In this document: one piece after another, positions 1 to 64,000 of the stretch
Position numbering within the stretch: the stretch's first letter is position 1
Layout: each line of letters begins with the position of its first letter
Sequence record: PQ604604
DNA length: 64,000 bases
Source: Escherichia phage ECP_WGS_SA1
Strand: one strand, 5' to 3'
Notes under the pieces: generated by a model
What the model was told of the DNA's origin: nothing
Database searches by the model: none
The model's input: only the letters and a program-made list of their open reading frames with translations
Position numbers and translations under genes: made by a program

Positions 1-328
1 NNNNNNNNNNNNNNNNNNNNNNNNTGATCCTGTGCCNCCCATGGAAGTTGGGACGATGCTTTGATCAGCNNNNNNNNNNNNNNNNNNNNNNNNNNNNNNN
101 NNNNNNNNNNNNNNNNNNNNNNNNNNNNNNNNNNNNNNNNNNNNNNNNNNNNNNNNNNNNNNNNNNNNNNNNNNNNNNNNNNNNNNNNNNNNNNNNNNNN
201 NNNNNNNNNNNNNNNNNNNNNNNNNNNNNNNNNNNNNNNNNNNNNNNNNNNNNNNNNNNNNNNNNNNNNNNNNNNNNNNNNNNNNNNNNNNNNNNNNNNN
301 NNNNNNNNNNNNNNNNNNNNNNNNNNNN

Positions 329-725
329 GATGCACCAGCATTTGCTGATTGATGATATTGACCAAACCATGAACCAGTCAAGGCATTGAGATTTATTCCG
401 TTAGGAATCTCTCCAAAGTTTCGGACAGTACCCGTCAAAGTTGCGGCAGTGGTTCGAATAGAAAGCATGTCGCCAGCCGCCCATGCACGCGCTGCAGTTC
501 CTTCCTGTGCACGCTGCACGGTCAGGACGTTTCCAACAACGGCTGTTACTGTGACGATTTCGAATTGGAGGCCTGTTGCGGCGTCAACGATTGTCGCCAC
601 TACACGCTCGTTTGCGCCCAAGGTCGGAAAGCCCGACCCTGAGCGAATTGTGATTGTGGTGTCTGAAGTCGTCGTTGGCTGAGCGAGCGCGACCTCAAAG
701 TTGTTTTTGAATATTAGCCTTGGCA
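329..725 (-). CDS. Tail fibre protein, N-terminal part (partial; runs into N-gap)
   Basis: Minus-strand ATG at 725 with GAGGA RBS; translation MPRLIFKNNFEVALAQ...TVQRAQEGTAARAWAAGD resembles the conserved N-terminal domain of phage tail fibres; not in ORF track because it enters N-run. Confidence 0.5.
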
Positions 726-764
726 TTTTACGGTCCTCGTTTTGTCGACAACCGTATTATAACC

Positions 765-1106
765 TTAATTTCTTTTGAGAGGAATATGACGGTTGCTGTC
801 ATTATTTGGTTTAATAATGAGCATAAAAACGATTAGAAAGATGATGGCTGATATACTTAATTCAATCAGAGCGGCTTGAGATATGGATTGGTCTTCGTGA
901 TACTGCTTTTGCATTTCCGCTTTCTTCTGAGCGCAAACTTCAGGTGATATATAATCGCCTTTTGAGTTGCCATAATAAATCTCGCCATTCTCAGAAATAA
1001 GTCTGCCGCAAATATCAGTTTCAGCCTTTGCGCTTGACATCATAATGACGGTGCCGATGATAGCGGCAATTGTCCAGATTAGCAGTTGTGATAAAGTGTT
1101 GTTCAT
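765..1106 (-). CDS. Small membrane protein (N- and C-terminal hydrophobic segments)
   Basis: Internal start MNNTLSQLLIWTIAAIIGTVIMMSSAKA with AGAGG RBS; C-terminal hydrophobic stretch. Confidence 0.45.
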   Translation of the reverse strand: MNNTLSQLLIWTIAAIIGTVIMMSSAKAETDICGRLISENGEIYYGNSKGDYISPEVCAQKKAEMQKQYHEDQSISQAALIELSISAIIFLIVFMLIIKPNNDSNRHIPLKRN

Positions 1107-1302
1107 GATAACCTCTTTAAATTCCCTTCCCACATCGGGAAGGGTGAATATTATTTTAAACGAAAGAATAGGCGCGTGCCACACAGAGAGTCCCAACGGC
1201 CTTCGCCGTCCCATATCGAACCAACGCCAGCAGTGATTGGGCCAGCAGAATTGGCGGCATTGGCCCAAGCGAGACGTTTCAACTTCCAACTGCACCAACG
1301 AT

Positions 1303-1536
1303 TCACAGTTCACCTCCAGATTGCAAAACAAGTCCCGCATAGAGGATTGCTAAAGCTAAAGGCGCACCACTTCCAGCTTCTCTATTCTCTTTGATTTGAA
1401 GAGTGTCCTTAAGGAATTGCAGCTGAACGTTGAATTCATTTTCAATTCCAAGCACTCCAGCTAATTCTTTTACAGAATCTGCATATGCCTTGTCTAGCAC
1501 TTCTTTTGGTACTGTTAAAGTCAATTCATTTGCCAT
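1303..1536 (-). CDS. Hypothetical protein
   Basis: ORF with GGAG upstream of MANELTLTV start. Confidence 0.4.
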   Translation of the reverse strand: MANELTLTVPKEVLDKAYADSVKELAGVLGIENEFNVQLQFLKDTLQIKENREAGSGAPLALAILYAGLVLQSGGEL

Positions 1537-1747
1537 TTTCTTTCCACTCCACAAATGCACTTCCACTTGTTTCTCTATTTAGCAGGTATCTGCCGCGCAT
1601 TCCATGAAGGCTGAACTCAACCGTCGATGGATTAGATTTTGAAAGCCACATCGCTTGACCGTCGAACGGTCCGCCAACGCATGTGTATTTAGCCTTTGGC
1701 TCACTCCTTTTGGGTCGCTTTGCCCGCTCTTTGATTGATAGTCTCAT
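1526..1747 (-). CDS. Hypothetical basic protein
   Basis: ORF in operon-like array; lysine/arginine-rich N-terminus. Confidence 0.4.
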   Translation of the reverse strand: MRLSIKERAKRPKRSEPKAKYTCVGGPFDGQAMWLSKSNPSTVEFSLHGMRGRYLLNRETSGSAFVEWKENGK

Positions 1748-1962
1748 CAGTCTTCACCTTGAGATTCCAGACAAGTAAGAACAAGCCACGTCATCGGAAG
1801 AATCAAAACCAGAGAAATAAGGGACCAGATGGACCAGCACAAGATGACAGACTTGAATGTGTGAACGTCGCCAAACGCAGCAGTGAAACAAAATCCCATC
1901 ACGAAAGCAAGCACAGTGGAGTGATTATCAATAGCTTTGATGGCACGGTCAATGAGTTTCAT
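1747..1962 (-). CDS. Small membrane protein (holin-like size)
   Basis: GGAGG RBS; two hydrophobic helices in 71 aa. Confidence 0.45.
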   Translation of the reverse strand: MKLIDRAIKAIDNHSTVLAFVMGFCFTAAFGDVHTFKSVILCWSIWSLISLVLILPMTWLVLTCLESQGED

Positions 1963-2036
1963 ATTACCTCCGGTTTTGAGTTAATATGATTATAACGCAG
2001 AGCTTCAGAAAGGCAAACTTTTTGTGAATTTANNNT

Positions 2037-2063
2037 AAAAAAATGGCCAGANNGNNTCTGGCC
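2037..2063 (-). terminator. Hairpin with T-run on minus strand (loop N-masked)
   Basis: GGCCAGA-loop-TCTGGCC preceded by A7 on plus strand. Confidence 0.3.
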
Positions 2064-2139
2064 AAAAGATCACCCTTTATCCACTACTAAGCTGGAATCA
2101 TAATTTTACTTGATATAGCTGTCGCAAGCAAACTATAAT

Positions 2140-3600
2140 ATGAATAAAATATTAACACATAATTGGAAAGTCATGTACCAGTTGAATCCTGCTTTAAGAG
2201 AAGTCTGGAAGACGAAAGCGCGATACAAAGTTATATACGGCGGTCGTGCATCTTCCAAATCGCATGATGCCGCTGGTTTTGCTATTTATTTGGCGGCAAA
2301 TTTTAAATTAAAATTCCTTTGCGTTCGACAATTCCAGAACAAGATTTCTGAATCAGTATATACGCTATTAAAAGACAAAATAGAAATTTCTGATTTCAAA
2401 GATGAGTTCAACTTATTAAAGAACTCCATTGAACACAAAAGAACAAAATCTGAATTCTTATTTTACGGTATCGCACGCAACGTTGACGAAATCAAATCAA
2501 CAGAAGGTGTTGACGTTCTTTGGCTTGAAGAAGCGCACGCGCTGACTGAAGAGCAGTGGGATATTATTGAGCCGACAATTCGTAAGGAAGGGTCCGAAAT
2601 ATGGATCATATTTAACCCTGATGAAGAGGCTGATTTCGTCTACCAGAACTTTGTTATGCGACCGCCTAAAAATGCCATCGTTAAGAAAATTAACTGGCAG
2701 GACAATCCATTCTTGTCGCAAACAATGCTGGACGTTATCGCTGGCATGTATGAGCGCGACCCGAAAAAGGCAGAACACGTTTATGGCGGAGTACCGAAGA
2801 CAGGCGGCGACAAGTCGGTCATCAACCGTGCATTCGTCAAGGCCGCGCTAAACCTCCACAAACACCCTACGTTGGGATGGAGGTTGTCAGGGTCTAACCG
2901 TATAGGCTTTGACGTGGCAGACGACGGCGACGACTTAAACGCCACAGCATTTGTCACGGGCAACGTATTGCGCGGCATCAAGACATGGGAAGGTCTGGAA
3001 GATGAATTGCTTAAGTCCGCAAGCGGAGTTTGGAAAGATGCATTAACATTCGGCGCATCAATTACCTATGACGCCATCGGTGTTGGTGCATTTGCTGGTT
3101 CAAAATTTGATGAGCTTAATGAGTATGCAATCCATGAAAATCCAACATTCCCAAGAATCGAATTTAATGCGTTCAACGCGCAAGGTGCTGTTGATGATCC
3201 TGATGACGTCTTCCTTGAGTTACCACACGTTGAAATACTCAATAAAGACCATTTCGCAAACATAAAAGCGCAAAAATGGACTGAGATTGCCGAACGATTC
3301 AGGAAGACATATGAGTATGCAACAGGGCAGGCCGTATACCCGACTGATGAGCTGATTTCCATCGACACAGACGGCATTCCAGAACTTGGGATTCCTGCTT
3401 GGTCTGCGGAAGAAATTGAGACATTTCTTTTTGAGATGTCAGCGCCGCGCAAAGACACGTCTGTGCTTGGTAAGTTTAAAGTTGAATCGAAAAAGGATAT
3501 GGCAAAGCGTGGAGTCAAATCGCCTAACAAAGCGGACGCAGCAATCATGGCGTTGATGAAACCAATTGTTGCAGCATCCGGCTTCTTCTCTAACCTTTAA
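2140..3600 (+). CDS. terL: Terminase large subunit
   Basis: Walker A-like KVIYGGRASSKSH near N-terminus, acidic nuclease-like C-terminal half; true start may be Met at 2173. Confidence 0.85.
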   Translation: MNKILTHNWKVMYQLNPALREVWKTKARYKVIYGGRASSKSHDAAGFAIYLAANFKLKFLCVRQFQNKISESVYTLLKDKIEISDFKDEFNLLKNSIEHKRTKSEFLFYGIARNVDEIKSTEGVDVLWLEEAHALTEEQWDIIEPTIRKEGSEIWIIFNPDEEADFVYQNFVMRPPKNAIVKKINWQDNPFLSQTMLDVIAGMYERDPKKAEHVYGGVPKTGGDKSVINRAFVKAALNLHKHPTLGWRLSGSNRIGFDVADDGDDLNATAFVTGNVLRGIKTWEGLEDELLKSASGVWKDALTFGASITYDAIGVGAFAGSKFDELNEYAIHENPTFPRIEFNAFNAQGAVDDPDDVFLELPHVEILNKDHFANIKAQKWTEIAERFRKTYEYATGQAVYPTDELISIDTDGIPELGIPAWSAEEIETFLFEMSAPRKDTSVLGKFKVESKKDMAKRGVKSPNKADAAIMALMKPIVAASGFFSNL

Positions 3601-3603
3601 CAA

Positions 3604-3843
3604 TTAAAGCATTCCGTGCTGAAGGTCGAGTTTTCTTGCGGCAAACGACCTGGCACGGAATCGCTTACCCGCCCTTACTGCCTGTCGAATCTTCTTTTGC
3701 AAACACTTACGATCAAAATCGTTGCGGTCGACGGCTTCGAGTAAATCACGACGCAGAGCACCCAGTGTCGACTTTTCAGAGACTTCAACGCCCAGCGCGG
3801 CTGCAACGTCTTTCAAAACATCGAGTTCGGTTAAAGTTCTCAT
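3604..3843 (-). CDS. Hypothetical protein (opposite-strand insert between terL and portal)
   Basis: AAGGGGA RBS; start overlaps stop of upstream gene (ATGA). Confidence 0.45.
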   Translation of the reverse strand: MRTLTELDVLKDVAAALGVEVSEKSTLGALRRDLLEAVDRNDFDRKCLQKKIRQAVRAGKRFRARSFAARKLDLQHGML

Positions 3844-4256
3844 TTGATAATCCCCTTGATGTCTGATTCTGCCATAAAGATTGGAGTTCCGCCGCCAGGA
3901 ACAATCGAGCGCGTGACTTTATCAAACATATCGTTTTCTTCAACTTGAATACGATAGAATTTATTTTTGGATGAAGATGGGCACAATCCCATAAATTTGC
4001 CGATTCCGCGAACGCATTCATCTTCAAAGTATACTGTTTCACCTTGAATTGAGTCGATGTTGTCTACTGGATAGACCTTGCGGCCCAACAACCACTCATC
4101 CAAAGTCGCCTGCAAGACGTTGCGCGCATCTAAAATCCACGGGTCAATAATAGCACCTTCGTATCGCGCAGCAGTGGCCTTTGCCAGTTCTTCATATTCG
4201 CATACGTTAACGACTTCGCCTTTATGCAAGACGACAAATACAATTGTTGTGCTCAT
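3840..4256 (-). CDS. Hypothetical protein (opposite-strand insert)
   Basis: AAGGAG RBS 7 nt upstream of ATG; 138 aa. Confidence 0.55.
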   Translation of the reverse strand: MSTTIVFVVLHKGEVVNVCEYEELAKATAARYEGAIIDPWILDARNVLQATLDEWLLGRKVYPVDNIDSIQGETVYFEDECVRGIGKFMGLCPSSSKNKFYRIQVEENDMFDKVTRSIVPGGGTPIFMAESDIKGIIK

Positions 4257-8575: not shown

Positions 8576-8586
8576 AGAGGAAGTTA

Positions 8587-8724
8587 TGCAAAAGATTATT
8601 CAGTCACGTTACGTTAAAGTGCGAAATATTAATTGCAACTCTTTGCTTTCTTGGAAATGGGCTGTTTACGACTCGATGATGATTGGCGTTTTAGTTGCTG
8701 GAGTGCTTTTTAATATTCACTGAA
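8587..8724 (+). CDS. Small hydrophobic peptide (45 aa)
   Basis: AGAGGA RBS; single predicted TM helix (WAVYDSMMIGVLVAGVLFNI); below ORF-track size cutoff. Confidence 0.4.
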
Positions 8725-8759
8725 TCGCCTGGCAATGGATTGCCGCAGGATTTTACGCG

Positions 8760-9035
8760 TATAATGACGTATCATCCGTATCAAGTAAGTAGTTGTTTTC
8801 AAAAGAATCTTACGGATGATACGGATGATACGCGTTGCCGCGATACTTTATAGGAATTCAAAAAAAATAAAATAAAATTATATATCTAATTTAATTTTAT
8901 TTTTTTATAAACTCTTATATATGAAAAGTATCCGTATCATCCGTATCATCCGTAGCACACCAGTGATAGCGCGGCTTATACACCGATACGGATAAAAATA
9001 CGCCTCATTTTATCCGTATCATCCGTATCACACTA
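8760..9035. repeat. Iteron-like repeat island (GATGATACG units in both orientations around AT-rich palindrome)
   Basis: CTTACGGATGATACGGATGATACGCG at 8809, inverted copies at 8768, 8929, 9011; AT-rich palindrome 8861-8905. Confidence 0.6.
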
Positions 9036-9087
9036 ATTAAGGCGCGGCTATATCGGTTGTTATACATATTCAAACCATAATTATTGT

Positions 9088-9116
9088 TTGCCTAAGTTTT
9101 TTTCATTAGATATAAT
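9088..9116 (+). promoter_or_regulatory. Sigma70-like promoter upstream of protease/scaffold-capsid genes
   Basis: TTGCCT - 17 nt - TATAAT, about 25 nt before RBS. Confidence 0.55.
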
Positions 9117-9145
9117 ACACAATACTTATTTGAGGGTGGATGCGA

Positions 9146-59369: not shown

Positions 59370-59818
59370 TGGGTAAACGGCTTATCGCTGCTGGTTGGGC
59401 CATACCGAAGTGGGGCCATCGTGCGCATTACTTTGACGAAGGAGAAGTGCAAAGCCTTTGTGGTCGCGCAACGTATTTCGGTGATGAACGCGTCAGCGGC
59501 GATTATATCGATTCGCTTTTAGGCAAAGGTGATTGCAAGAAGTGCCAGAATATATTGAGAGATATTCTTACGCAAAAAGGATTGCTTGAGCTTGATGAAT
59601 CGGAAGAAGTAATTGAGCTTAAGCTGGAAGCCAATCACCTTATTAATATGTTCAAGAATTATTACTTAACTAATATGCGCTCAAAGATGCGTAAGGAAGT
59701 AATAGAAGAGGTACTCACTTACAATCCTTTAAGGATGAATAAAACTAAATTGAAGAAGTTTAATATAATGATAAGGAAGGAATTTAAAAGGCTTGGAGTG
59801 AAGAATTTTATATTTTAA
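59366..59818 (+). CDS. Hypothetical protein with Cys cluster
   Basis: ORF followed by strong intrinsic terminator. Confidence 0.45.
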   Translation: MMGKRLIAAGWAIPKWGHRAHYFDEGEVQSLCGRATYFGDERVSGDYIDSLLGKGDCKKCQNILRDILTQKGLLELDESEEVIELKLEANHLINMFKNYYLTNMRSKMRKEVIEEVLTYNPLRMNKTKLKKFNIMIRKEFKRLGVKNFIF

Positions 59819-59859: not shown

Positions 59860-60080
59860 GNNNTTGTTNTGTGAGTCTTTATTATCGGATAAAGCGATTG
59901 ATTTGTGTAAATCTATTAGAGGATGGTGGGGTGTGAGTATTGTGACGTGATTTTTGTGTCTTGAATATGTGTGCGAATTTGGAAGAATATTGTACTGTGG
60001 TGTTGTGGGATTGGAGAGGGAATCACTAGGAATTGGAGCGTGTACCGTGGTGTGTGGGCCTGTAGGCTGCGCCGCCTCTG
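59860..60080 (+). other. G+T-rich, C-poor tract
   Basis: About 200 nt with very few C on plus strand, no ORF. Confidence 0.4.
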
Positions 60081-60224
60081 GGATTGCCGCTTGAAATTAA
60101 AAAGGAGATATAGTTAGCTGGCTAACCTTACGCATAGAATTTAAACGTATAATGACGTAAGATTTGGACCTATCCGTAGTTCACTCCACACACTTCTATG
60201 GTGCGCCGCGACTGGGTTCAGTGG

Positions 60225-60432
60225 TACATCTTACGGATGATACGGATGATACGCGTCGCCGCTATACTTTATACAACTTTGAAAAAAACAATTAACTCCA
60301 TTTTGAATTAATTTAAATTAATTTTTTTCTACATCCTCATACTTATACTAAACTTGTGTTTATACGTATTATCCGTAAGATATAAGTAAAAACAAAGACT
60401 TGCGGCAATACGGATGATACGTCATGATACGC
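60225..60432. repeat. Second iteron-like repeat island (same unit)
   Basis: About 50 bp near-identical to 8809-8860, plus extra copies at 60364 and 60408 flanking an AT-rich stretch. Confidence 0.6.
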
Positions 60433-60578
60433 TTCAACCAGCCAGCAGCGGCTAAGTCATTGATTTGCATAACAAGCGGCGAAAGGGATTGATTTCTTTT
60501 ATACGTATCAAACAGTACACCACGCATCACGGTCCGCTATTCATTTAGCACTATGATTTATGTACGTTTACAGCCAAT

Positions 60579-60607
60579 TTGAACATCAATCTGCACTTGA
60601 ATATAAT
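60579..60607 (+). promoter_or_regulatory. Sigma70-like promoter upstream of 60660 gene
   Basis: TTGAAC - 17 nt - TATAAT; ATTTGCACTAT motif copies lie in the leader. Confidence 0.5.
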
Positions 60608-60659
60608 GTTCATTCATTGTATAATTCACACTATTAATTTGCACTATGGGATTTGCACT

Positions 60660-61133
60660 ATGAGTCAAGATTATGTAGCAATGCCTGAAGACTTTGAAGA
60701 CCCGCGATTTGCAGAGCATAATCAGGCATTATTCGATGAGTTCATTGACCTTGTTATTCAGGGCCATGACATGCGCGCAGCTTTTGCACTAGTATTTGGC
60801 ATGGAGGTTGCGACCGATAACTACACTGGCCAGCGAATCCTGTGCACTCAGCGCAATCCGTACTACAAGATGCGCTACAAAAAGCGCATGGAAGAGATGC
60901 CATTGAAGGAGTTGTGGAGTGTAAAGAGTTCCATCCACAATTTAGTGAAGCTTGTGCGTGATCCAGAAGTCGCGGCTTCAGCCAAGCTTAATGCCATTCG
61001 TGAACTGAATATCATCTACGGCATCACGATGATTGATGAAAATGGCAATAGTAAAATGGGCCGTTCCATGGACGATTTCTACAAGGATTTTGGAGAGGCA
61101 GCCAAAGAGGGTGAGCAATTCTCCCGCCACTAG
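60660..61133 (+). CDS. DNA-binding protein, terminase small subunit-like candidate
   Basis: Segment MRAAFALVFGMEVATDNYTGQRILCTQRNP resembles the HTH region of small terminase families; consensus promoter upstream. Confidence 0.4.
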   Translation: MSQDYVAMPEDFEDPRFAEHNQALFDEFIDLVIQGHDMRAAFALVFGMEVATDNYTGQRILCTQRNPYYKMRYKKRMEEMPLKELWSVKSSIHNLVKLVRDPEVAASAKLNAIRELNIIYGITMIDENGNSKMGRSMDDFYKDFGEAAKEGEQFSRH

Positions 61134-61561
61134 CCAATTTGCACTATAAAACGGCCCTAGAACACATTTTCTCCACTTCTAGGGCCGTTGGTAATACGAC
61201 GGGGAAGGCTGCAACCATAAACGCGTTATAAAGTGTATTATTATAAGTCATCTTTTAGTCGCTTTACGTAACAATTTACGACCTTCCGCCGTCCAGTCGA
61301 ACGACTCCACCAGCAGATTTGCACTATAACCTAAGACGATGCGCCCCTTCTCGTTATCGACCCGCCAACAAGTCTCGAATAGCATTCGATTTGCACTATT
61401 AACTATCGCCGCAACGCGCGTTGGGTAAGCGCAATTTGCACTATGGTCGTAAAGGGATAAGGTGCGACCACTGCCGATGGACAACGTAGCGATGAGAATA
61501 AGCGTATTCATAAGCCACCAATTTGCACTATGAAAAGCGACCCCGAAGGGCCGCCATTCGA

Positions 61562-62188
61562 TTAGATAATCTGGAAGGTGTAGGACTTGTTGCCGAACTC
61601 GAAGTTCAAGCGCCCGGCTTCCTTAAGCTTCATGCGGAAGCGAATGTGTTTGCTATCCGGTAAGCCCAGCGCGGCGAACGCTACGCGGACCGATTTGAAC
61701 TCGCCTACACCCTCGACCATAACGGCGTTACGGGTGAGACGCTTTTGTGCCACTTCCTTGTTATCCCAACTTTTTGCAATACCTTCGCTATTAGAACGGC
61801 GATGGGAAGGAGTTCCATTTTGCACTACGCAATTTGCACTATCGTTTAGGCCGCTCTTAACGAAGGCTTCATACTCTTCGTCGGTCATCGCGTCGAGTTC
61901 TTCCTGAGTCGGCTCGGCCTTTTTAACGACCGCACGCGCCTTATGCGTTTTTACATCGCTGGACACTTCCTCGCGCGGCTTCGCGTCGGGGATGGGCAAT
62001 TCGTTGGACGGCTCATCGAGCGCGTTTAAGGACTCGATTAACGCGATGACGCGAGTCTCAGCGGTGCGACGGTCCACAAACTTCTTAATCGGTTTTGAGC
62101 CGGAGTTGGCATTATAGAATGCAACGAGGTCGGCGGTCTTAGTTGCGATAACGTCGCCGCTAGTAGAAAAGCGATTTAAGCTAACCAT
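61562..62188 (-). CDS. Hypothetical protein (early island)
   Basis: AGGAG RBS; atypical CpG-rich codon usage. Confidence 0.5.
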   Translation of the reverse strand: MVSLNRFSTSGDVIATKTADLVAFYNANSGSKPIKKFVDRRTAETRVIALIESLNALDEPSNELPIPDAKPREEVSSDVKTHKARAVVKKAEPTQEELDAMTDEEYEAFVKSGLNDSANCVVQNGTPSHRRSNSEGIAKSWDNKEVAQKRLTRNAVMVEGVGEFKSVRVAFAALGLPDSKHIRFRMKLKEAGRLNFEFGNKSYTFQII

Positions 62189-62268
62189 AATAAACTCCTA
62201 TTTGTTAGGGCGCTAGGCGCGAAAGAATTTTATTAAAGCGCCGCGCACGACGCTCTAAAAATCCTCTC

Positions 62269-62583
62269 TTACTCTTCGTCGTCTTCGATTAATTCGAAGG
62301 CGAAGGCATAAGCTTTGCTATCGTAATTAACTAAAACGGCGAGTTCGAACTCGTTAATAAACGCCGTTTTACCGCATAAATTTAATTCCGCATCGACTTC
62401 GAAGAATCCGTTTTCGTCGCGCTCTAAGCGAGAAGCAGCGAGTTGCTCGATTACCGTCGCGTCGTTAATTTCTTCGCCTAAGCGAACGCCGGAGAATTTC
62501 GCGAGAATTTCGCCGTAAGTAAGCGTAACACCCTGGACTTCGGCGGTTGCGTTTTCGAGGGTGAAGCGGGTAACGATAGCCAT
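62269..62583 (-). CDS. Small strongly acidic protein (paralog family, early island)
   Basis: AGGAG RBS; about 104 aa, strong net negative charge, C-terminal DSKAYAFAFELIEDDEE. Confidence 0.5.
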   Translation of the reverse strand: MAIVTRFTLENATAEVQGVTLTYGEILAKFSGVRLGEEINDATVIEQLAASRLERDENGFFEVDAELNLCGKTAFINEFELAVLVNYDSKAYAFAFELIEDDEE

Positions 62584-62651
62584 AATAAGCTCCTAGTTGG
62601 GAGAGGCGTTAACGACCTATTCGTTAACTCATCCCGTCCCGATATGAGTAC

Positions 62652-62679
62652 ATTATAATATAGTGTAGAAAAAAGTAAA
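62652..62679 (-). promoter_or_regulatory. Early promoter copy (minus strand)
   Basis: Minus strand reads AGTGCTTTACT - 16 nt - TATAAT. Confidence 0.55.
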
Positions 62680-62713
62680 GCACTTTTTCGATAAAAATGC
62701 GATAAATTATTTT

Positions 62714-62741
62714 ATCTTTTTTCTTTACTTCTTCGTACACT
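62714..62741 (+). promoter_or_regulatory. Early promoter copy (plus strand)
   Basis: CTTTACTTCTTCGTACAC...TATACT, then GC hairpin and RBS. Confidence 0.5.
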
Positions 62742-62807
62742 CGCGTATACTTGTTTATATCGAGACGGGCGATGGCCCTTTCTTCTACTAGCATCGGGAG
62801 CTTTATT

Positions 62808-63110
62808 ATGACTACTTTAATCTCTTCCATCCTTACTTACGACGAAGACCGCTTAACCGTTCGCTCTCTTATCGCCGCCGTTAACGCGGAACTAGAATCT
62901 AGCGCCATCAAGGTCCGTGCCGTTGCCTTCGTCGGCCTTTCCTTCGACGATATTAAGTATGCAGAGTATAGCGCCATTCGCGTTGTTACTACCGACGATA
63001 ACGCCGTTACCCTTATCGAGACGGTTACGCCGCGCGGCGAAGCGTTAATTATCGTCGAGTATATCGACGTAGAAGGCGATAAAGCTTATAAATATTTTAT
63101 CGCAGAATAA
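62808..63110 (+). CDS. Small acidic protein (paralog family, early island)
   Basis: GGGAG RBS; C-terminal GDKAYKYFIAE similar to 62269..62583. Confidence 0.5.
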   Translation: MTTLISSILTYDEDRLTVRSLIAAVNAELESSAIKVRAVAFVGLSFDDIKYAEYSAIRVVTTDDNAVTLIETVTPRGEALIIVEYIDVEGDKAYKYFIAE

Positions 63111-63120
63111 CGAAAAGTGC

Positions 63121-63149
63121 TTTACTTCTTCGTACACTAAGACTATAAT
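63121..63149 (+). promoter_or_regulatory. Early promoter copy (plus strand)
   Basis: AGTGCTTTACT - 17 nt - TATAAT; near-identical to 62714 copy. Confidence 0.55.
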
Positions 63150-63216
63150 GTTTTATATCGAGAGGGGATGAGGTAGCGAATAGGTCGCTACCCTCCCGAC
63201 TAACTAGGAGAATATT

Positions 63217-63507
63217 ATGATTACTTTATCCGCTATCCGCTCCGCTCGCGTCGAAACTTCCGAAAACTCTAACGTATTTGGCGAAANNNNNNNNNNNNNN
63301 NNNNNNNNNNNNNNNNNNNNNNNNNNNNNNNNNNNNNNNNNNNNNNNNNNNNNNNNNNNNNNNNNNNNNNNNNNNNNNNNNNNNNNNNNNNNNNNNNNNN
63401 NNNNNNNNNNNNNNNNNNNNNNNNNNNNNNNNNNNNNNNNNNNNNNNNNNNNNNNNNNNNNNNNNNNNNNNNNNNNNNNNNNNNNNTTTAAAATCGTCTC
63501 CTTATAA
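63217..63507 (+). CDS. Small protein (mostly N-masked)
   Basis: AGGAG RBS, N-terminus MITLSAIRSARVE resembles 62808 gene; body masked. Confidence 0.35.
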   Translation: MITLSAIRSARVETSENSNVFGEXXXXXXXXXXXXXXXXXXXXXXXXXXXXXXXXXXXXXXXXXXXXXXXXXXXXXXXXXXXXXXXXXXXFKIVSL

Positions 63508-63539
63508 TACCCTTCCGTTACTAATAGGCCGCGCTTAGT

Positions 63540-64000
63540 CGCGGCTTTTCTTCGTCCCTATCTCGATGCGCTTCTCCGCGAAAACTCCTTTATCCTTCCC
63601 TTCGTCGTCGCATAATCTTCGTCGAGATGCGCCTTAGTTCGCATAACAGGTATTACGTTAAATGGAGAACATCGCGTAAGTCCTTGTTTTATATAGACAC
63701 CTATATCGGACCGTTAGGGAGGGTCGCGCAAGTCGTTGTTTTATAAAGGCGCAAAACTTTCCCTTCGTTCCGAACTAAAACGAGAAATATGCCGACCCTT
63801 CGCCCGAAAATAGTACGCATGCGAAATTACATGTATCTAGAATAATCCCCACCGATATTATCCTACACGCAATCATTAGCTTTCGAATCATTATGCTTCA
63901 TACTATTATGCGTCGAATCATTCGCTTTCGAATTGTAACGCTGAAAACTGTAACGGCGATTGATTATTGCGTTCGTGTGGTTTTTATGGCATGGGTCTTT
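63540..64000. repeat. Repeat-dense non-coding region at window edge
   Basis: No ORF of 60 aa or more in any frame; short direct-repeat families (TCGCGYAAGTCSTTGTTTTATA x2, GAATCATTNGCTTTCGAAT x2, CCCTTCG x4, TGTAACG x2). Confidence 0.5.

Follow-up and report, generated by a model that had tools for sequence, protein, structure and literature searches.

In phage SPP1, the small terminase TerS (gp1) binds repeats on both sides of the TerL cut, and the pac site, which overlaps the terS promoters, is also where the terminase represses its own synthesis (PMC6316719). In addition, the SPP1 origin oriR is an intergenic island that interrupts the order of the virion-assembly genes, in the segment with genes 8-10 (PMC6316719). 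For T4, a twin-ring pac synapsis model has been put forward, in which stacked rings of the TerS gp16 bridge two homologous sites (PMC9611059). The TerS of the Pbunavirus phage E217 is decameric (PDB 7UXE); its C-terminal helix has been suggested to enter a second ring, and the terS gene lies far from terL (PMC9611059). According to a review of small terminases, E217 TerS shows no appreciable DNA binding in vitro, and a T4-like packaging mode without a pac site was suggested for this phage because of the remote terS gene and the negative binding result (PMC9611059).

Pbunavirus (PB1-like) phages have a single fixed read terminus, at which nucleotide 1 of Ab27-29 was set (Essoh 2015, PMC4482731). 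A putative pac site was assigned to position 59,376 of JG024, and a restriction digest gave the matching pac fragment (Ipoutcha 2024, PMC10913387). The genus Wifcevirus comprises E. coli and Shigella myophages that possess a terminal repeat of ~3.7 kb (Korf 2019, PMC6563267) and are distant relatives of the Pseudomonas Pbunavirus phages (PMC11990801).

Here we analysed 64,000 nucleotides of Escherichia phage ECP_WGS_SA1 (sequence record PQ604604), referred to as the window, which contain a repeat island termed locus A upstream of the head protease gene. We see an even chance that locus A is one of two ~330-bp dyad-symmetric putative protein-binding modules present in each genome of the PB1-like myovirus family. 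The module plan consists of short lineage-specific iterons (GATGATACG with a 9-bp period in the window) and outward-pointing GCGGC[A/T] motifs, which together flank an A+T-rich centre.

Repeat island upstream of the head protease gene

A preliminary description had reported iteron-like repeats and an A+T-rich palindrome in a 560-bp non-coding gap of the head-gene block. Sequence reading and repeat analysis recovered all of these elements, and the stretch 8724-9139 is indeed non-coding. Its length is 416 bp, because the remainder of the proposed gap is occupied by a 45-aa ORF (8586..8723, plus strand) located between the head-fibre gene and the island. This ORF, for which a Pfam search gave no match, is annotated at the same position in Mansfield, LBL3 (ORF20), BcepF1 (BcepF1.120), Eco4M-7 and a Logan contig.

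The full dyad-symmetric module of locus A spans positions 8737..9075 and contains nine GATACG/ACGGAT cores in inverted arrays that flank a centre of 90% A+T. The left half has an outer iteron pair CGTATCATCCGTATCA (8768..8783, minus strand) and inner tandem iterons TACGGATGATACGGATGATACG with a 9-bp period (8811..8832, plus strand), followed by a GCGGCA motif on the minus strand (8836..8841, TGCCGC on the plus strand), another minus-strand copy of which lies at 8741-8746. The A+T-rich centre of 82 nt (8847..8928) is homologous to the stretch that bears the genome end in the second locus described below. In the right half, the inner triple iteron TATCCGTATCATCCGTATCATCCGTA (8929..8954, minus strand), which is invariant in 8/8 genomes compared, is followed by a GCGGCT motif (8971..8976, plus strand; second plus-strand copy at 9044-9049) and the outer iterons (8985..9030), composed of GATACGGATA on the plus strand (8985-8994) and TATCCGTATCATCCGTATCA on the minus strand (9011-9030). 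The left tandem (8811-8832) and the stretch 8933-8954 are inverted repeats of each other, 22 nt long and without mismatch, and the right outer iterons form a 13-nt inverted repeat among themselves (8985-8997/9008-9020).

Three statistics show that this island did not arise by chance. Across 64 kb, locus A holds six exact copies of the 12-mer ACGGATGATACG and the second locus three, with none elsewhere; this total of nine was reached by 0/100 shuffles. The GATACG core is found nine times in 276 nt against 0.08 expected, corresponding to a ~100-fold enrichment (Poisson P ~3e-16). Moreover, an unbiased k-mer cluster scan ranked the island first in the window.

Locus A is 93-99% conserved among the eight Wifcevirus genomes compared, and in Bas101 exactly one 9-bp unit is missing at the left inner tandem. 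It occupies the same position in 28/28 Wifcevirus records and in three further lineages. The earlier view that the island had been inserted into the head-gene block is thus contradicted by a syntenic island at the same place in at least four genus-level lineages. The palindrome, with 23-nt arms at 8861-8883 and 8884-8906 that are 91% complementary, is present in the window as described, but is not conserved. Its left arm (8861-8883) reads AAAAAAATAAAATAAAA here versus AATAAATTAATTTAAAA in the relatives and differs at four positions from all seven genomes compared, so the near-perfect palindrome is specific to this phage, whereas the A+T richness of the centre is shared.

Downstream of locus A, a sigma-70-like promoter TTGCCT-17-TATAAT (9088..9116, plus strand), assigned by consensus match only, separates the module from the gene for the head maturation protease (DUF2213/PF09979; 9140..10558, plus strand), the first of the protease-scaffold-capsid block. 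A promoter scan of the locus A centre found no good promoter. The tetramer GATC is absent from both loci; across the whole window it is under-represented, with 103 copies against ~250 expected. Runs of masked bases (N) interrupt several ORFs of the record (~57.5 kb, 59.2-59.3 kb, 59861-59870 and 63400-63486) and touch neither module.

A paralogous locus at the left genome end

The ~50 bp of near-identical sequence noticed earlier at 60.2 kb proved to be the core of a longer resemblance: 46/48 nt are identical (60228-60275 versus 8807-8853), and colinearity extends over ~330 nt. Pairwise alignment (8725-9140 against 60070-60660) showed that locus A and this second locus, termed locus B (60144..60515), are colinear paralogues that share the outer motif CGTATAATGACGTA, tandem iterons followed by GCCGC, an A+T-rich centre, inverted iterons, GCGGC and TTATAC.TATTCAAAC. 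The iterons of locus B are located at 60172-60177 (minus strand), 60232-60253 (tandem, plus strand), 60365-60376 (minus strand) and 60410-60432 (plus strand), and its GCGGC[AT] motifs at 60085 (minus strand), 60402 and 60448 (both plus strand). Compared to the nine cores of locus A, locus B has only five; with these cores and its perfect 22-nt inverted repeat, locus A is the more complete copy. Both loci match 28 Wifcevirus records, including WFH, WFC, FEC19, ECML-117, Mansfield and Bas98-101, with identities of 88-99%, and the window is Wifcevirus DNA.

The positions of genome ends were taken from the record starts and annotations of others and from published coordinates. In Mansfield, a direct terminal repeat (DTR) predicted by PhageTerm spans 1-3673; its base 1 corresponds to window position 60301, and the bases that precede this position in the window form the end of the Mansfield record. 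The WFH and WFC records, which come from a different laboratory, start at the same base. As these three starts coincide, the left physical end is placed between 60300 and 60301 (...AATTAACTCC / ATTTTGAATT..., the slash marking the break), inside the A+T-rich centre of locus B (60267-60362) and 47 nt after its tandem iterons. The right-hand copy of the 3.7-kb DTR accordingly covers 60301..64000, and the end of the window is the exact right boundary of the repeat. By contrast, none of the Wifcevirus records starts in locus A (0/28). ECO71P1 was considered as an independent determination of the end and was set aside, for its break lies 10 nt from the locus B cut with a ~60-nt terminal overlap and looks like an assembly break. 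An IMG/VR contig (L009) ends at the window-equivalent position 8807 inside locus A; it is a plain assembly and serves as a lead only.

The cut motif TTAACTCC/ATTTT (slash as above) is invariant in eight genomes, despite the replacement of the left flank of locus B in one clade. In that clade the whole left flank is replaced and iteron-like motifs are nevertheless retained. An uncultured relative, with a TerS of only 70% identity, has retained the cut motif as well. At the homologous position of locus A the motif is not present, and locus A is also devoid of the G/T- and C/A-skewed flanks and of the one-directional ATTTGCACTA array seen at locus B.

The gene terS (60660..61133, plus strand), 360 nt downstream of locus B, encodes a small terminase of 157 aa, as indicated by a phmmer match to E217 TerS (PDB 7UXE, E=9e-33) and by the Mansfield annotation. 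Its product and ORF76 of LBL3 both belong to PHROG 4783. Two overlapping sigma-70-like promoters (60579..60625, plus strand; consensus matches only) are found upstream of the gene. Locus A is 16 kb away from terS.

Several further features surround the genome end. A repeat ATTTGCACTA(T) occurs ten times (eight exact, two with one mismatch), all on the plus strand and within 60637-61841 only, on the packaged side of the cut. All ten are packed into 1.2 kb immediately interior to the left genome end; the start codon of terS is abutted by two of them, and a minus-strand ORF contains three others (61317, 61389 and 61434). In the Logan relative, repeats of a similar type (GCACTAT) lie ahead of terS (L028 9880-10005). 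The ATTTGCACTA array may be a terminase site like cosB or a set of operators, and could even be the real TerS site in place of the iterons. A G/T-rich stretch lies left of locus B (59860-60070), with a GC skew of +0.35 in the 59-60 kb bin, and C/A-rich stretches lie right of the equivalent site in Pbunavirus and in Serratia phage KKP 3709 (L015 31750-31930 and 32340-32560; L030 110-300). Strand composition thus switches locally, centred on the packaging end. At the other end of the DTR, the GATGATACG iterons were not found at the right boundary (63870-64000), just inside which short repeats TCGAATCATT and TGTAACG are present that may mark the second terminase cut. Six tandem repeats of CGACCCA are located just outside the terminal repeat in Mansfield (3840-3880), in the 3.6 kb that the window omits.

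Paired modules in related phages

A two-copy layout with lineage-specific iterons was found in Pbunavirus, Bcepfunavirus and Salmonella phage PCSE1, and an uncultured relative has it with the Wifcevirus core iteron. In each genome, terS is preceded by one module and the head protease gene by the other, and the two copies are equally oriented in all three genomes compared (the window, Pbunavirus and BcepF1). The B-type copy adjoins terS in all five lineages examined, and a non-coding island lies at the same position upstream of the protease gene in Pbunavirus LBL3 and Burkholderia phage BcepF1.

Clusters of GGTAATTTGG-type motifs are restricted in LBL3 to 11.6-11.9 kb on the protease side and 57.8-58.3 kb on the terS side, where the island is a 900-bp gap between the primase gene and terS; the two islands align with 71% identity over ~300 nt. 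In BcepF1, TAACTAAG clusters only upstream of the protease gene and at 20.77-20.85 kb, directly upstream of a terS gene that is not annotated in the record. This terS homologue (EF153632, 20082-20498, minus strand) was revealed by tblastn (E=3.5e-25); small plus-strand ORFs.059-.061 of the GenBank entry overlie it. An earlier argument against a promoter-linked role, that the second BcepF1 locus lies between convergent genes, was ruled out by this terS on the other strand. In PCSE1, repeats ATATCGGC/ATATAACGG with a 10-bp period form clusters upstream of terS and of the protease gene, and the Logan contig of the uncultured relative has the TGATACG core at both the terS-side and the protease-side places. 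The record of KKP 3709 begins within A+T-rich sequence, 377 nt ahead of terS; the protease-side island of this phage was not located in the fragmentary annotation. No comparable module was found upstream of terS or of the protease gene in Xanthomonas phage FoX6 (Carpasinavirus).

Unlike the lineage-specific iterons, GCGGC[A/T] is common to the phages of E. coli, Pseudomonas and Salmonella. Its copies point outward without exception, all 11 left copies being on the minus strand and all 14 right copies on the plus strand, and BcepF1 has only one copy across its two modules. As the exact 21-mer matched only Wifcevirus contigs of IMG/VR, the exact iteron is not more widely distributed. The conservation of a two-copy module with different iterons in each lineage indicates, judging from sequence, a putative sequence-specific protein that would co-evolve with two sites per genome.

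The Pbunavirus cut maps to the corresponding place. The fixed read terminus of Ab27/Ab28 and position 59,376 of JG024 are the same nucleotide (CGATTGC[A/C]CAATCC). It belongs to the A+T-rich centre of the module beside terS, and the tandem iterons follow 71 nt later. Many further Pbunavirus records begin at this cut, with terS at ~617-628. The physical genome end is thus held by the A+T-rich centre of locus B in Wifcevirus and likewise by the centre of the terS-side module in Pbunavirus. The protease-side module is uninterrupted in 294/297 Pbunavirus records. A single one of the 297, E215 (NC_042080), starts at the protease-side equivalent, 14 nt from the cut-homologous position, and both begins and ends inside this module. 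This record is raw SPAdes output, and its break, which may have been produced by the assembly, is taken as a lead only.

Candidate functions and likeness to known systems

Of the functions suggested in the preliminary description, a packaging site accords best with locus B, which holds the physical left end in its centre and is followed directly by terS; this agreement applies to locus B only. The iterons around an A+T-rich centre and the pairing of two loci were correctly recognised, and both traits are conserved across genera. Short repeats flank the central zone at both loci, as on the two sides of the cleavage zone of a pac-type site. However, a virion end inside the element, as seen from record starts and published coordinates, is a feature of locus B and not of locus A. 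The same holds for a place beside terS, which locus B has in five lineages, whereas locus A is upstream of the protease gene. Taken together, these findings support locus B as a packaging-initiation site of the SPP1 type, and the module is probably a packaging-recognition element bound by TerS.

In the mechanism we propose, the iteron arrays would be the binding sites of a ring-shaped TerS, and the spacer-less tandem 8-10-bp iterons would fit contacts made by neighbouring subunits of the oligomer. TerS would then position the otherwise non-specific nuclease of the large terminase on the module centre, as in the pacL-pacC-pacR arrangement of SPP1. Locus A would bind the same protein as locus B and be cut rarely or never, since it has neither the conserved cut motif of locus B nor its flanking features. 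Binding without cutting makes an auxiliary terminase site, within a pair of TerS-binding modules, the most likely role of locus A, an assignment for and against which we find the arguments evenly poised. It may act as an operator that couples the head-protein operon just downstream to the terminase level, as a secondary pac site of low use, or as a synapsis partner of locus B like that proposed for T4. Several points weigh on the other side: E217 TerS shows no appreciable DNA binding in vitro, the ATTTGCACTA array is an alternative candidate for the TerS site, locus A is more complete than locus B and yet is not a mapped end, only one Pbunavirus record starts at its equivalent, and the iteron architecture fits a replication origin equally well.

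A pair of replication origins, the function favoured in the preliminary description, is the strongest rival; we consider it less likely, though of real weight. A phage initiator, such as a primase-helicase, would bind the iterons of both loci and melt the A+T-rich centre; initiation might occur at one copy while forks stall at the other, and the cut at locus B would coincide with, or be coupled to, the origin structure. The layout itself agrees well with this proposal, as the iterons flank a centre of 90% A+T, and locus A, with nine cores and an 82-nt centre, exceeds the three iterons beside an A+T element usually expected of an origin. In addition, two distant copies with the same repeats resemble oriL/oriR of SPP1, and origins of staphylococcal pathogenicity islands likewise have two iteron sets around an A+T-rich region. 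Classical iterons of 17-22 bp are, however, longer than the tandem 8-10-bp units found here.

The expected host-factor sites speak less for an origin. The DnaA box TTWTNCACA is absent from both loci, and a single IHF consensus was found, in the outer part of locus B and not in a module centre. The consensus scan of the two loci found TTATCCGTA, with two mismatches to the DnaA box, three times. A phage-encoded initiator would not need DnaA or IHF sites. Cumulative GC skew climbs without reversal between 0 and 31 kb, locus A included, and shows no turn at 8.8 kb, a test that is weak since phage skew follows gene orientation; the origins proposed for Pbunavirus from GC skew are in replication genes and have no bearing on the modules.

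Gene context was also compared. In Pbunavirus (LBL3) and BcepF1, the 3' end of a primase or primase-helicase gene is closely followed by the terS-side copy, as an origin would suggest. This adjacency is nevertheless lost in Wifcevirus, where ~20 small genes intervene, whereas adjacency to terS is kept in all five lineages. There is no initiator gene beside locus A, and the primase gene that precedes the equivalent of locus B in LBL3 and BcepF1 does not do so in the window. Finally, a virion end in the module centre, near its midpoint, in two genera is not predicted by a model of origins alone.

Less probable still is a pair of operator or enhancer arrays, by which a phage transcription regulator would co-control the terS and protease-scaffold-capsid operons, the pac cut merely overlapping one of them. 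Such control would agree with the strong sigma-70-like promoters (consensus matches) of terS and the protease gene, which lie 60-180 nt after the modules, and with the same promoter-side positions in PCSE1 and in LBL3, where promoters are annotated inside the islands. The short tandem and inverted repeats also resemble the arrays of ribbon-helix-helix regulators, for example omega or ParR. However, the core promoters of the window lie outside the iteron arrays, with no good one in the centre of locus A, and no regulator gene was identified near either copy, so that the iterons at a core promoter and the adjacent regulator gene of omega/ParR-type systems are both missing. Moreover, known activator and repressor sites are much smaller and less symmetric than the module, the terL and portal operons, which are also structural, lack a copy of it, and operators would leave the position of the cut in the centre unexplained.

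A non-functional repeat, be it a mobile or recent insert, a structured RNA gene or a chance cluster, scarcely merits consideration, and, as far as the comparative data reach, we regard these possibilities as excluded: the island does interrupt a compact gene block and its long inverted repeats give weak hairpin-type Rfam hits, but Rfam 15 yielded nothing at the gathering score for either locus (best 34 bits versus a threshold of 80, an inverted-repeat hairpin artefact), the syntenic position is conserved in at least four genus-level lineages with their own iterons, the iterons of locus B survive flank replacement as those of the right arm of locus A stay invariant in 8/8 genomes, the exact 21-mer is confined to Wifcevirus contigs of IMG/VR, and each genome has only two copies, in contrast to the variable presence and extra copies of a mobile element or MITE.

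Returning to a packaging-recognition module, an extension that we hold to be improbable is that stacked TerS decamers, or a replication-packaging complex, bridge the two loci on the concatemer and that packaging is licensed only when both are occupied. If so, several phage genera would have in common a packaging signal made of two separate sites at a distance of 16-29 kb, head-gene expression or replication would be linked to the first terminase cut, and two-site bridging would possibly also govern the formation of the exact 3.7-kb terminal repeat.

The Pbunavirus pac coordinate (PMC10913387) and the Wifcevirus terminal repeat (PMC6563267) had already been published. The Pbunavirus pac papers examined give a coordinate only. 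The literature searched contains no description of the iteron architecture, of the duplicate before the head genes, of the outward GCGGC[A/T] motifs or of conservation across genera with lineage-specific iterons, and the paired module therefore appears to be undescribed there. One GenBank record marks a 49-bp 'repeat_region' at the site. Pbunavirus phages are among those most used in Pseudomonas therapy and are now rebuilt synthetically. The structure of a PB1-like TerS has been solved and the field has suggested that there is possibly no specific pac site; the iteron module at the mapped cut now provides a candidate DNA target, and a second copy of the module stands in front of the head genes in every genome of the family. 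These observations raise the questions of how a ring-shaped terminase reads repeated 8-10-bp units, why a second copy is left uncut, and whether one cis element serves packaging, head-gene expression and replication. For genome engineering, the two intergenic islands are best left undisturbed.

Among the known systems, the terS-side module most resembles the pac site of SPP1, in that repeats flank the stretch that is cut and the site lies at the 5' end of terS, overlapping or abutting its promoters. It differs from SPP1 pac in its iterons, which are 9-bp tandem units in a dyad-symmetric array. Moreover, SPP1 has a single pac, whereas a second full copy is found here 16 kb away, upstream of the head protease gene. 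The Wifcevirus ends are exact, with a 3.7-kb DTR, in contrast to the headful-permuted ends of SPP1. The pac site of Pbunavirus (JG024 59,376; nucleotide 1 of Ab27) is homologous to locus B and cut in the module centre, but its packaging is headful and has no exact DTR, unlike that of Wifcevirus.

The module is also similar to the pac site of P1, where hexamer repeats form two clusters around a central cleavage zone of ~100 bp. However, GATC is part of the P1 hexamers, which Dam methylation regulates, whereas loci A and B contain no GATC, and the module centres here have no IHF consensus. To our knowledge, P1 has no two-copy arrangement. As for T4, the common trait is two homologous putative terminase-recognition sequences per genome; those of T4 are short, lie inside genes and define no unique genome end, and a synapsis of loci A and B is an analogy. 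Finally, oriL and oriR of SPP1 are two loci that share repeats and an A+T-rich unwinding element, at which gp38 acts, and from the SPP1 gene numbering we take the position of oriR to correspond to that of locus A in the head-gene block. In SPP1, the initiator gene contains oriL, and pac is a site of its own, whereas in the window the packaging end falls in one of the two copies and neither copy adjoins an initiator gene.
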